Sequence record: PP430145.1
Direction: 5' to 3' (one strand)
DNA length: 4,183 bases
From: Enterobacteria phage FrSangria
The notes under the pieces were generated by a model. That model made no database searches. It was not told the DNA's origin and saw nothing but the letters and a program-made list of their open reading frames with translations. A program made the position numbers and the translations under genes. Below, piece by piece: positions 1-4,183 of the stretch. Every line of letters begins with the position of its first letter. Position 1 is the stretch's first letter.

Positions 1-49
1 TTAGGGGGTCACCTCACACAGCAGTATTTCACTGAGTATAAGAGGACAT
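1..49 (+). other. 5' untranslated leader (partial); 2-10 'TAGGGGGTC' looks like the 3' half of the Qβ 5'-terminal hairpin whose G-rich 5' partner lies outside the window
   Basis: Non-coding sequence upstream of the first ATG at 50. As I recall it, the Qβ genome begins GGGGACCCCCUUUAGGGGGUCACC..., and the window starts inside that sequence. Confidence 0.7.
39..46 (+). promoter_or_regulatory. Shine-Dalgarno region of the maturation gene (TAAGAGGA, 3-nt spacer to ATG at 50)
   Basis: Purine-rich GAGGA at 42-46 lies directly upstream of the ATG at 50-52. Confidence 0.6.
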
Positions 50-1312
50 ATGCCTAAATTACCACGTGGTCTGCGTTTCGGAGCCGATAATGAAATTCTT
101 AATGATTTTCAGGAGCTCTGGTTTCCAGACCTCTTTATCGAATCTTCCGACACACACCCGTGGTACACACTGAAAGGCCGTGTGTTGAATGCCCATCTTG
201 ATGATCGCTTACCTAATGTAAGCGGTCGCCAGGTTAGGCGAACTCCACATCGTGTTACTGTTCCGATTGCCTCTTCAGGCCTTCGTCCAGTAACAACCGT
301 TCAGTATGATCCCACAGCACTATCGTTCTTATTGAACGCTCGTGTTGATTGGGATTTCGGTAATGGCGACAGTGCGAACCTTGTCATTAATGACTTTTTG
401 TTTCGCACCTTCGCGCCTAAGGAGTTCGATTTCTCGAATTCCTTAGTTCCTCGTTATAACCAGGCCTTCTCCGCTTTTAATGCCAAATATGGCACTATGA
501 TCGGTGAAGGGCTCGAGACTATAAAATATCTCGGGCTTTTACTGCGCAGACTGCGTGAGGGTTACCGCGCTGTGAAGCGTGGCGATTTACGTGCTCTTCG
601 CAGGGTTATCCAGACTTACCATAAAGGTAAATGGAAACCGACTACTGCTGGTAATCTCTGGCTCGAATTTCGTTATGGCCTTATGCCGCTCTTCTATGAC
701 ATCAGAGATGTCATGTTAGACTGGCAGAAACGTCATGATAAGATTCAACGCCTCCTCCGGTTTTCAGTTGGTCACGGCGAGGACTATGTTGTCGAATTTG
801 ACAACTTATATCCTGCTGTTACCTACTTTAAACTGAAAGGTGAGATTACACTCGAACGCCGTCATCGTCACGGCATATCTTACGCTAATCGCGAAGGATA
901 TGCTGTTTTCGATAACGGTTCCCTTCGGCCTGTGTCCGATTGGAAGGAACTTGCCACCGCATTCATCAATCCGCACGAGGTTGCATGGGAGTTAACTCCC
1001 TACAGTTTCGTTGTCGATTGGTTCTTGAATGTCGGTGACATACTTGCTCAGCAAGGTCAGCTATATCATAATATCGATATTGTAGACGGTTACGACAGAC
1101 GTGACATTCGCCTCAAATCTTTCACTATAAAAGGTGAACGAAATGGGCGACCTGTCAACGTTTCTGCCGACCTATCTGCTGTCGATACATTTTATAGTCG
1201 ACTTCATACTAGCAAGCTTCCGTTCGCTACACTCGATCTCGATACTACCTTCAGTTCGTATAAACACGTTCTTGATAGTATCTTTCTATTAACCCAACGC
1301 ATTAAGCGTTGA
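50..1312 (+). CDS. A2: Maturation protein A2 (pilus attachment protein; in Qβ-like phages also the lysis protein, inhibiting MurA)
   Basis: A 420-aa ORF from ATG 50 to TGA 1310-1312. The translation MPKLPRGLRFGADNEILNDFQELWFPDLFIESSDTHPWYTLKGRVLNAHLDD... agrees closely with Qβ A2 as I recall it. First gene in the order and the expected size for a Qubevirus maturation protein. Confidence 0.93.
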   Translation: MPKLPRGLRFGADNEILNDFQELWFPDLFIESSDTHPWYTLKGRVLNAHLDDRLPNVSGRQVRRTPHRVTVPIASSGLRPVTTVQYDPTALSFLLNARVDWDFGNGDSANLVINDFLFRTFAPKEFDFSNSLVPRYNQAFSAFNAKYGTMIGEGLETIKYLGLLLRRLREGYRAVKRGDLRALRRVIQTYHKGKWKPTTAGNLWLEFRYGLMPLFYDIRDVMLDWQKRHDKIQRLLRFSVGHGEDYVVEFDNLYPAVTYFKLKGEITLERRHRHGISYANREGYAVFDNGSLRPVSDWKELATAFINPHEVAWELTPYSFVVDWFLNVGDILAQQGQLYHNIDIVDGYDRRDIRLKSFTIKGERNGRPVNVSADLSAVDTFYSRLHTSKLPFATLDLDTTFSSYKHVLDSIFLLTQRIKR

Positions 1313-1332
1313 AACTTTGGGTCAATTTGATC

Positions 1333-1734
1333 ATGGCAAAATTAGAGACTGTTACTTTAAGTAACATCGGGAAAGATGGAAAACAAAATCTGGTCCTCAA
1401 TCCGCGTGGGGTAAATCCCACTAACGGTGTTGCCGCGCTTTCACAAGCGGGTGCAGTTCCTGCGCTGGAGAAGCGTGTTACCATTTCGGTATCTCAGCCT
1501 TCTCGCAACCGTAAGAACTACAAAGTCCAGGTTAAGATCCAGAACCCGACCGCTTGCGCTGCAAACGGTTCTTGTGACCCATCCGTTACTCGCCAGGCGT
1601 ATGCTGACGTGACCTTTTCGTTCACGCAGTATAGTACCGATGAGGAACGAGCTTTCGTTCGTACAGAGCTTGCTGCTCTGCTCGCTAGTCCTCTGTTGAT
1701 CGATGCTATCGATCAGTTGAATCCAGCGTATTGA
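1333..1734 (+). CDS. cp: Major coat (capsid) protein, 133 aa
   Basis: ATG at 1333 gives MAKLETVTLSNIGKDGKQNLVLNPRGVNPTNGV...LLIDAIDQLNPAY, ending at TGA 1732-1734. This is near-identical to the Qβ coat protein. The ORF track's start at 1309 is a TTG upstream of the real ATG and overlaps the A2 stop. Confidence 0.95.
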   Translation: MAKLETVTLSNIGKDGKQNLVLNPRGVNPTNGVAALSQAGAVPALEKRVTISVSQPSRNRKNYKVQVKIQNPTACAANGSCDPSVTRQAYADVTFSFTQYSTDEERAFVRTELAALLASPLLIDAIDQLNPAY

Positions 1735-2325
1735 ACGTTGCTCATTGCCGGTGGTGGCTCAGGGTCCAACCCCGATCCGGTTATCACTCCGGATCCACCG
1801 ATTGATCCGCCGCCAGGGACAGGTAAGTATACCTGTCCTTTCGCAATTTGGTCCTTAGAAGAGGTTTACGAGCCTCCTACTAAGAACCGACCGTGGCCTA
1901 TCTATAATGCTGTTGAACTCCAGCCTCGCAAATTTGATGTTGCCCTTAAAGATCTTTTGGGCAATACAAAATGGCGCGACTGGGATTCTCGGCTTAGTTA
2001 TACCACGTTCCGCGGTTGCCGTGGCAACGGTTACATTGACCTTGACGCGACTTATCTTGCTACTGATCAGGCTATGCGTGATCAGAAGTACGATATTCGC
2101 GAGGGCAAGAAACCTGGTGCTTTCGGTAACATTGAGCGATTCATTTATCTTAAGTCGATAAATGCTTATTGCTCTCTTAGCGATATTGCGGCCTATCACG
2201 CCGATGGTGTGATAGTTGGCTTTTGGCGCGATCCATCTAGTGGTGGTGCCATACCGTTTGACTTCACTAAGTTTGATAAGACTAAATGTCCTATTCAAGC
2301 CGTGATAGTCGTTCCTCGTGCTTAG
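1333..2325 (+). CDS. A1: A1 read-through minor capsid protein (coat domain plus C-terminal extension made by UGA suppression)
   Basis: The frame stays open from the coat UGA to the tandem stops TAG/TAA at 2323-2328. The extension ...GGGSGSNPDPVITPDPPIDPPPGTGKYTCPFAIWSLEEVYEPP...CPIQAVIVVPRA agrees with the Qβ A1 read-through domain as I recall it, including the Gly/Pro-rich hinge. Confidence 0.9.
1732..1734 (+). promoter_or_regulatory. Leaky UGA stop codon of the coat gene (programmed translational read-through site)
   Basis: The TGA at 1732-1734 is followed in the same frame by 591 nt with no stop until TAG-TAA at 2323-2328. In Qβ a low percentage of ribosomes read this UGA as Trp, producing A1. 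Confidence 0.9.
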
Positions 2326-2330
2326 TAACT

Positions 2331-2335
2331 AAGGA
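2331..2335 (+). promoter_or_regulatory. Shine-Dalgarno (AAGGA) for the replicase gene, 8-nt spacer to ATG at 2344
   Basis: The sequence TAACTAAGGATGAAATGCATG places AAGGA at 2331-2335, upstream of the replicase start codon. Confidence 0.6.
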
Positions 2336-2339
2336 TGAA

Positions 2340-2359
2340 ATGCATGTCTAAGACAGCAT
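2340..2359 (+). promoter_or_regulatory. Translational operator hairpin (coat-protein binding site) containing the replicase start codon
   Basis: AUGCAUGUCUAAGACAGCAU folds as an 8-bp stem (2340-2343/2356-2359 and 2345-2348/2352-2355) with a bulged A at 2344 and a 3-nt loop UAA (2349-2351). The replicase AUG (2344-2346) sits in the stem. This matches the Qβ coat-protein operator architecture. Confidence 0.85.
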
Positions 2360-4113
2360 CTTCGCATAACTCTCCTAGCGCACAATTGCGCCGAGCTGCG
2401 AACACAAGAATTGAGGTAGAAGGTAACCTCGCACTTTCCATTGCCAACGATCTATTGTTGGCTTATGGTCAATCGCCATTTAGCTCCGAAGCCGAGTGTA
2501 TTTCATTCAGCCCGAGATTCGACGGGACCCCGGATGACTTTAGGATAAATTATCTTAAAGCCGAGATCATGTCGAAGTATGGCGATTTCAGCCTAGGTAT
2601 TGATACCGAAGCTGCTGCCTGGGAAAAGTTCCTGGCAGCAGAGGCTGAATGTGCTTTAACGAACGCTCGCCTCTATAGACCTGACTACAGTGAGGATTTC
2701 AATTTCTCACTGGGTGAGTCATGTATCCACATGGCTCGCAGAAAAATAGCCAAGTTAATAGGAGACGCGCCGTCCATTGAGGGTATGTTGCGTCACTGCC
2801 GATTTTCTGGCGGTGCCACAACAACGAATAACCGTTCGTACGGTCATCCGTCCTTCAAGTTTGCGCTTCCACAAGCGTGTACGCCTCGGGCTTTGAAGTA
2901 TGTTTTGGCTCTTAGAGCTTCTACACACTTCGATATCAGAGTTTCTGATATTAGCCCTTTTAATAAAGCAGTTACTGTACCTAAGAACAGTAAGACTGAT
3001 CGTTGTATTGCTATCGAGCCCGGTTGGAATATGTTTTTTCAACTAGGCGTTGGTGGCATTTTACGCGACCGGTTGCGTTGCTGGGGTATCGATCTGAATG
3101 ATCAGACGATAAATCAGCGTCGCGCTCACGAAGGCTCTGTCACTAATAACTTAGCGACGGTTGATCTCTCAGCGGCAAGCGATTCTATATCTCTTGCTCT
3201 CTGTGAGCTCTTATTGCCCCCAGGTTGGTTTGAAGTCCTTATGGACCTCAGATCACCGAAAGGGCGGTTGCCTGACGGTAGTGTTGTTACCTACGAGAAA
3301 ATATCCTCTATGGGTAACGGATACACATTCGAGCTTGAGTCGCTTATTTTTGCTTCTCTTGCCCGTTCCGTTTGTGAGATACTGGACTTAGACTCGTCTG
3401 AGGTTACTGTTTACGGAGACGATATTATTTTACCGTCCTGTGCAGTACCTGCCCTTCAGGAAGTTTTTAAGTATGTTGGTTTTACCACCAATACTAAAAA
3501 GACTTTCTCCGAGGGGCCGTTCAGAGAGTCGTGCGGTAAGCACTACTATTCTGGCGTAGATGTTACTCCCTTTTACATACGTCACCGTATAGTGAGCCCT
3601 GCCGATTTGATATTGGTTTTGAATAACCTATATCGGTGGGCCACAATTGATGGCGTATGGGATCCTAGGGCCTATTCCGTTTACCTCAAGTATCGTAAGT
3701 TGTTGCCTAAACAGCTGCAACGTAATACTATACCTGATGGTTACGGTGATGGAGCCCTCGTCGGATCGGTCTTGATCAATCCTTTCGCGAAAAACCGCGG
3801 GTGGATCCGGTATGTACCGGTGATCATAGACCATACAAGGGACCGAGAGCGCGTTGAATCGGGATCGTATCTCTACGATCTCTTTTCGCGTTGCTTCTCG
3901 GAAAGTAACGATGGGTTGCCTCTAAGGGGTCCGTCGAGTTGCGATTCTGTAAATCTGCTTGCTATCGACCAACTTATCTGCAGGAGCAATCCTACTAAGA
4001 TAAGCAGGTCTACTGGTAAGTTCGATATACAGTATATCGCGTGCAGTAGCCGTGTTCTGGCACCCTACGGGGTCTTCCAGGGCACGAAGGTTACATCTCT
4101 ACACGAGGTGTAA
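2344..4113 (+). CDS. rep: RNA-dependent RNA polymerase, replicase beta subunit (589 aa)
   Basis: ATG at 2344 gives MSKTASSHNSPSAQLRRAANTRIEVEGN..., ending at TAA 4111-4113. It contains the catalytic YGDD motif at 3412-3423 (VTVYGDDIILPS). The translation is near-identical to the Qβ replicase as I recall it. The ORF-track start at 2335 (MKCM...) is an in-frame upstream ATG and probably not the real start. Confidence 0.95.
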   Translation: MSKTASSHNSPSAQLRRAANTRIEVEGNLALSIANDLLLAYGQSPFSSEAECISFSPRFDGTPDDFRINYLKAEIMSKYGDFSLGIDTEAAAWEKFLAAEAECALTNARLYRPDYSEDFNFSLGESCIHMARRKIAKLIGDAPSIEGMLRHCRFSGGATTTNNRSYGHPSFKFALPQACTPRALKYVLALRASTHFDIRVSDISPFNKAVTVPKNSKTDRCIAIEPGWNMFFQLGVGGILRDRLRCWGIDLNDQTINQRRAHEGSVTNNLATVDLSAASDSISLALCELLLPPGWFEVLMDLRSPKGRLPDGSVVTYEKISSMGNGYTFELESLIFASLARSVCEILDLDSSEVTVYGDDIILPSCAVPALQEVFKYVGFTTNTKKTFSEGPFRESCGKHYYSGVDVTPFYIRHRIVSPADLILVLNNLYRWATIDGVWDPRAYSVYLKYRKLLPKQLQRNTIPDGYGDGALVGSVLINPFAKNRGWIRYVPVIIDHTRDRERVESGSYLYDLFSRCFSESNDGLPLRGPSSCDSVNLLAIDQLICRSNPTKISRSTGKFDIQYIACSSRVLAPYGVFQGTKVTSLHEV

Positions 4114-4183
4114 CCTGGGAGGGCGCCATTATGGCGCCTAATTGTGAATAAATTATCACAATTACTCTTATGAGTGAGAGAGG
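4114..4183 (+). other. 3' untranslated region (partial, 3' terminus missing) with two stem-loops
   Basis: Hairpin 1 at 4122-4138 is GGCGCCA-UUA-UGGCGCC (7-bp perfect stem, 3-nt loop). Hairpin 2 at 4140-4163 is AAUUGUGA-(AUAAAUUA)-UCACAAUU (8-bp stem). The window ends in ...GAGUGAGAGAGG, without the C-rich terminal segment and the CCA/CCCA end expected for a levivirus. Confidence 0.75.

Follow-up and report, generated by a model that had tools for sequence, protein, structure and literature searches.

A 4183-nucleotide sequence of Enterobacteria phage FrSangria: very probably a Qβ-clade RNA genome with technically clipped ends

The window analyzed here, the whole stretch of 4183 nucleotides (nt) from Enterobacteria phage FrSangria (sequence record PP430145.1), resembles the genome of the single-stranded RNA (ssRNA) phage Qβ over its full length and stops short of the Qβ termini on both sides. 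Two questions arise from this: what kind of molecule the sequence represents, and whether its ends are missing from the virus or only from the record. Our data indicate that the window is almost certainly the complementary DNA (cDNA)-derived sequence of the positive-strand RNA genome of FrSangria, a member of the Qβ clade, and that its ends were clipped technically.

Identity and termini of the window

Whole-window megablast was performed against 50,697 phage records. All 81 records that matched belonged to Qβ/Qubevirus, and 33 of the 81 covered at least 80% of the query. The top match, Qβ strain HL4-9 (FJ483841), aligned as a single ungapped piece with 100% coverage and 95.1% identity at positions 13-4195 of its 4221 nt, and the prototype-lineage Qβ Anc(P1) (AB971354, 4217 nt) aligned at positions 12-4188 with 94.2% identity. 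The best match reached only 95% because FrSangria's own record lay outside the phage collection searched. Qβ-clade genomes were collinear with the window from end to end without rearrangement, at nucleotide identities of 92.4-95.1%, a resemblance far greater than chance would give. A first-pass annotation of this DNA had described it as a near-full-length Qβ-like genome and had proposed a BLAST comparison with Qβ, M11, and MX1; the description was borne out by collinear alignment at interior coordinates, with matches to Qβ/Qubevirus only and with the reference termini left uncovered by the window.

The A2 and replicase proteins encoded by the window were residue-for-residue identical to FrSangria WZB35618.1 and WZB35621.1 (PP430145.1). 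Quinones-Olvera et al. (Nat Commun 2024, PMC11015023) isolated FrSangria from wastewater on an IncF-plasmid host, along with three other phages related to Qβ; it was sequenced by Illumina from reverse-transcribed RNA with assembly by Unicycler or rnaviralSPAdes (PMC11015023). The phage was plaque-purified and was amplified on MG1655 + F'; it forms plaques and lyses cells, two later studies of defence systems made use of it, and the receptor named for it in the literature is the F pilus. The proposal that the sequence came from an F-pilus-specific coliphage thus agrees with the isolation of FrSangria as an IncF-dependent phage (PMC11015023). Both its RNA origin and its F-dependence are confirmed by the literature, the window itself showing only 96.7% A2 identity to the Qβ A2.

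Qubevirus genomes begin with 5'-GG... and end with ...CCA-3', with terminal hairpins, and neither terminus was found in the window itself. Its outermost features are the following:

1-49, + strand: clipped 5' untranslated region (UTR), with the ends aligned to those of HL4-9, Qβ Anc, VK, and TW18
4114-4183, + strand: clipped 3' UTR, with hairpins at 4121-4139, 4140-4163, and 4164-4175 (fold z = -4.4)

Of the 5'-terminal hairpin, the window has only the loop and 3' arm, at bases 1-13 (UUAGGGGGUCACC). It lacks the 5' arm, GGGG(G)ACCCCC(C/U), which reads GGGGGACCCCCC (12 nt) in HL4-9, VK, and TW18 and GGGGACCCCCT (11 nt) in Qβ, or GGGGACCCCCU when the Qβ arm is written in RNA letters. The full 5' end of HL4-9 folded into a terminal hairpin of -23.6 kcal/mol, and the 5' end of the window folded no better than shuffled sequence (z = -0.25). 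The 3'-terminal hairpin has a 9-nt 5' arm, of which the window includes 8 nt (4176-4183); the rest of this hairpin, with its loop and 3' arm, was absent, as was the CUCCCA tail. The window terminates with ...GAGUGAGAGAGG, and complete genomes go on for another 26 nt, GAUCUGCUU(U/A)GCCCUCUCUCCUCCCA (in DNA letters, GATCTGCTT(T/A)GCCCTCTCTCCTCCCA; the absent 3' part is also given as GAUCUGCUUUGCCCUCUCUCCUCCCA). Read beside complete genomes, the two ends are as first annotated, with a start inside the 5'-terminal hairpin and a stop before the C-rich 3' segment and CCA.

The missing 3' sequence was detected in the read archives. The Logan contig SRR24145723_47 was 100% identical to window positions 1690-4183 and continued for 25 nt, GATCTGCTTTGCCCTCTCTCCTCCC, to ...CCUCCC, falling short of the complete 3' end by the final A only; this terminal A is added without a template (PMC4200798). 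When the tail of the window was restored with the 25-nt extension from this longer contig, a fourth, terminal hairpin appeared, and the fold reached -46.8 kcal/mol (z = -7.0). A second contig, SRR24145721_6, was identical to window positions 897-3031. The runs SRR24145721 and SRR24145723 are within the accession range of the FrSangria authors' BioProject list, and the exact runs are not on that list. Since an identical contig reaches ...CCUCCC and the phage forms plaques, the clipping belongs to the record or its assembly and not to the virus.

The absence of the termini from the window would also be seen if the sequence represented a biologically truncated, defective Qβ-like RNA truly devoid of them. 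We regard this as very improbable, given the 3' end carried by the identical read-archive contig up to ...CCUCCC and the fact that FrSangria was plaque-purified and replicates. The sister records FrMerlot, FrHibiscus, and FrBurgundy also begin a few bases inside the 5' hairpin. The same was observed for an unrelated contig from the Joint Genome Institute (JGI) metagenomes, the only one recovered in a scan with a conserved 5' 23-mer (Ga0179939_1057709, 92.4% identical to window positions 1-2890). A start of this kind is usual when RNA ends are assembled from short reads. It is likewise very unlikely that the clipping stems from FrSangria RNAs truly present in end-truncated form in the lysate that was sequenced, instead of from trimming in the assembly or the record.

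No weighty evidence speaks against the window being the technically clipped genome of FrSangria. The 5' end of the FrSangria strain itself was not recovered, and searching assembled contigs for the exact A2 protein, with the aim of reaching that end, returned 0 matches. The strain identity to PP430145.1 rests on the exact match of two proteins and not on a base-by-base comparison. The only discrepancy from FrSangria is one of length: PP430145.1 is quoted as 4215 nt (bioRxiv 10.64898/2026.03.20.713152), and the window has 4183 nt. By the stem-loop coordinates given in that preprint, the longer sequence would exceed the window by 6 nt on its 5' side and by 26 nt on its 3' side (6 + 4183 + 26 = 4215), and a version of FrSangria with 6 more 5' bases and the full 3' tail probably exists.

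Both CCA-3' and 5'-GG are required for replicase initiation, which starts at the penultimate C (PMC4200798), in agreement with the earlier statement that the two ends are needed for this step. With approximately 11-12 nt (5') and 26 nt (3') absent, the written sequence is without both replicase initiation sites. In an RNA made exactly as written, the plus strand would be without CCA-3' and the minus strand without the complement of 5'-GG, and the long-range pseudoknot would have lost the loop of the 3' hairpin. The truncation is technical, produced in the assembly or the record, and the virus has normal ends. The view that this copy is not replication-competent therefore holds for the sequence as written and does not extend to the virus, as the clipping concerns the record.

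Origin and classification

The DNA letters and the primer-like clipped ends would also be explained if the sequence came from a plasmid carrying prototype Qβ as a laboratory cDNA clone or from a copy inserted into a bacterial genome. Whole-window searches detected no chromosomal copy among complete E. coli genomes (5,426 genomes in 20,395 records) and no plasmid copy in 72,556 plasmids, within the limits of those collections, and vector sequence was present at neither end. The window also differed from laboratory Qβ lineages by approximately 6%, and 52 of its positions were unlike all five close strains compared. A cloned or integrated copy is thus extremely unlikely. The searches, together with the sequencing of FrSangria from reverse-transcribed RNA (PMC11015023), uphold the claim that the window is RNA-derived and not part of a cellular genome.

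Sliding-window identity against five Qβ-clade genomes was 91-98.5% throughout; the nearest strain switched by small margins only, and no convincing breakpoint of a recombinant mosaic was found in this comparison. Qβ strains HL4-9, TW18, VK, and FrMerlot and the prototype Qβ AB971354 have the same four genes and the same operator as the window, whereas complete records of the clade carry the termini absent from it and show approximately 5-8% nucleotide differences, mostly synonymous. An exact 35-mer search in IMG/VR yielded 0 matches. A Logan contig from an unrelated run (SRR34512418_2698, contig positions 1-2983) was 97.8% identical to window positions 14-2996, closer than any record of the phage collection, which indicates that FrSangria-like strains occur in other samples.

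M11 (AF052431) and MX1 (NC_001890) represent the other lineage inside Qubevirus durum. They are like the window in gene order, read-through design, UGA stop, pseudoknot partner, and the 3' tail CUCCCA, but differ from it in their UTR hairpin sequences, in nucleotide identity (approximately 71% when aligned globally and approximately 75% when only the alignable core is counted), and in replicase amino acid identity (69-70%). Membership in Qubevirus durum was defined by a replicase with at least 80% amino acid identity to a reference member, a proposed cut-off (PMC11015023). The replicase of the window was 96.4% identical to that of prototype Qβ and 95.4-97.3% identical to those of the other Qβ-clade strains, above this cut-off, and by this comparison the window lies inside the species limits of Qubevirus durum, genus Qubevirus. 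The lack of an identical phage-collection record and a best match of 95.1% might suggest a new species or membership in another Qubevirus lineage, either the M11/MX1 group or Qubevirus faecium (the FI/SP group); these readings have next to no chance of being correct, because replicase identity to M11/MX1 was only 68.7-70.3%, no region switched to a distant parent in the sliding-window comparison, and the isolating authors place none of their ssRNA phages below the 80% cut-off (PMC11015023).

Genes and RNA signals

Gene coordinates were transferred from three annotated relatives and agreed with the open reading frames (ORFs). The genes and the RNA signals between the UTRs are the following:

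50-1312, + strand: A2 maturation/lysis protein gene, 420 amino acids (ORF; PF03863 Phage_mat-A, E 8e-137; exact match to WZB35618.1)
1333-1734, + strand: coat gene, 133 amino acids including Met (PF01819 Levi_coat, E 6e-60; coordinates from annotated relatives)
1732-1734, + strand: leaky UGA closing the coat gene (TGA conserved in 8 of 8 genomes aligned)
1735-2325, + strand: A1 read-through extension with stop TAG at 2323-2325 (PF16814 Read-through domain, E 1e-96; in frame with coat)
2340-2359, + strand: coat-protein operator hairpin AUGCAUGUCUAAGACAGCAU, 20 nt, containing the replicase AUG at 2344-2346 (fold -8.1 kcal/mol, z = -2.7)
2344-4113, + strand: replicase β-subunit (RNA-dependent RNA polymerase) gene, 589 amino acids (PF03431, E 3e-217; exact match to WZB35621.1)
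2964-2971, + strand: octamer UAAAGCAG, putative internal pseudoknot partner (invariant in 8 of 8 genomes aligned)
3576-3659, + strand: long stem-loop in the replicase gene (fold -34.5 kcal/mol, z = -4.2)

The order A2, coat, and replicase, all on the + strand of approximately 4.2 kb, is that of Qubevirus. The first-pass annotation had recognized Qβ-type gene order and proteins, an operator hairpin, and UTR hairpins; four Pfam families were matched, the replicase, A2, and coat proteins showed approximately 94-97% amino acid identity to Qβ strains, and the hairpins were found by alignment and folding. Amino acid identity to Qβ-clade strains was 94.0-96.9% for A2, 94.7-97.0% for coat, and 92.7-97.6% for A1, compared to 64.6-67.7%, 82.0-85.0%, and 76.7-77.3%, respectively, for M11/MX1. 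Between the window and HL4-9, 147 codons differed synonymously vs. 43 non-synonymously, with changes mostly at third positions; this synonymous excess and third-position bias suggest that the genes are functional and under purifying selection.

The A2 protein of Qβ binds the F pilus. Its homolog in the window is also assigned the lysis function, on the basis of published work and of its annotation as "maturation-lysis protein A2". MS2-type phages (Emesvirus), of the same family, Fiersviridae, resemble the window: they are ssRNA phages that depend on the F pilus, encode maturation, coat, and replicase proteins, and have a coat-binding operator hairpin where the replicase gene starts. For lysis MS2 uses a separate, overlapping gene, and it makes no read-through protein, whereas in the window the read-through domain PF16814 sits between the coat and replicase genes. 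No MS2-like lysis gene was found over the coat/replicase junction, which no other + frame ORF of at least 40 amino acids spans. The only alternative-frame + ORF near the junction (1907-2161, 84 amino acids) was rejected as a gene, being interrupted by stops in TW18, M11, and MX1. A 147-amino acid antisense ORF opposite the read-through domain (1855-2298) was also rejected and is very likely due to chance: it is open only in the window and prototype Qβ, with a stop in HL4-9, FrMerlot, VK, TW18, M11, and MX1.

A1 comprises 330 codons counting the UGA, its sole internal stop, with approximately 196 codons in the read-through domain, and the reading frame predicts that it would be made by occasional suppression of the coat UGA. 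A Pro-rich linker at the start of the A1 extension (1775-1788) was observed to be an in-frame indel hotspot, where the window and HL4-9 are 3 nt (Thr) longer than Qβ and TW18, FrMerlot is longer than the window by 6 nt, and VK is different again.

The Qβ replicase operates with host EF-Tu, EF-Ts, and S1 and initiates de novo at the penultimate C of CCA-3'. The replicase of the window contains D274 and G358-D359-D360; of these, D274, D359, and D360 are the counterparts of catalytic Asp273/358/359 in the crystal structures, where the numbering is one lower (PMC4200798). The 90%-identity cluster represented by the window replicase also holds many 283-amino acid bacterial EF-Ts proteins (Pectobacterium, Kluyvera, and Klebsiella), probably a clustering artefact caused by the engineered EF-Ts/EF-Tu/β-subunit fusions used for Qβ replicase crystals.

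In the operator hairpin, a 3-nt UAA loop caps an 8-bp stem that carries a bulged A; the hairpin sequence is identical to that of Qβ and invariant in 6 of 6 Qβ-clade genomes. In Qβ this hairpin is the translational repressor site, a role carried over here to the window. An in-frame AUG at 2335, three codons upstream of the replicase start (2335-2343), lets the mechanical ORF begin at 2335; this AUG is conserved in six Qβ-clade genomes and absent in M11 and MX1, and the annotated start at 2344 lies inside the operator hairpin.

The octamer UAAAGCAG is complementary to CUGCUUUG, the loop of the 3'-terminal hairpin, which is absent from the window and was seen in the identical contig SRR24145723_47. 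The two are read as the pairing of the long-range pseudoknot for which Klovins and van Duin (1999) are cited (ref 67 in PMC4200798); the exact pairing, deduced from complementarity, is our own reading.

In FrSangria, mutations that escape the ApeA HEPN defence nuclease cluster at a stem-loop at 3582-3665, the reported trigger (bioRxiv 10.64898/2026.03.20.713152); after the +6 offset, this is the stem-loop at 3576-3659 of the window. Its position 3609 is G in the window, A in all five close strains, and C in M11 and MX1, and its basal stem is paired more fully in the window than in Qβ. That strain-specific bases such as the unique G at 3609 give distinctive biology has already been claimed in the same 2026 preprint.

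Position 4129, in the first 3'-UTR hairpin, gives CAUUAUG round the loop in the window and CAAUAUG in four of the five close strains; the U is shared by VK and M11. An Rfam scan with permissive E-values matched no family to the Qβ operator or the UTRs. A hit of the plant microRNA family mir-2574 to a hairpin at 1915-1988 was rejected as chance, with scores of 22.8 and 21.9 bits, one per strand, against a gathering score of 90.

Use of the sequence

The Qβ-clade genome seen in the window was deposited and published earlier, and all the features listed in the first-pass annotation are textbook Qβ biology. An infectious clone or an RNA-structure model built from the window requires both ends to be restored, with approximately 12 nt added on the 5' side and 26 nt on the 3' side. 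The main value of the finding is bookkeeping: the sequence is viral and RNA-derived, and it is not bacterial DNA.

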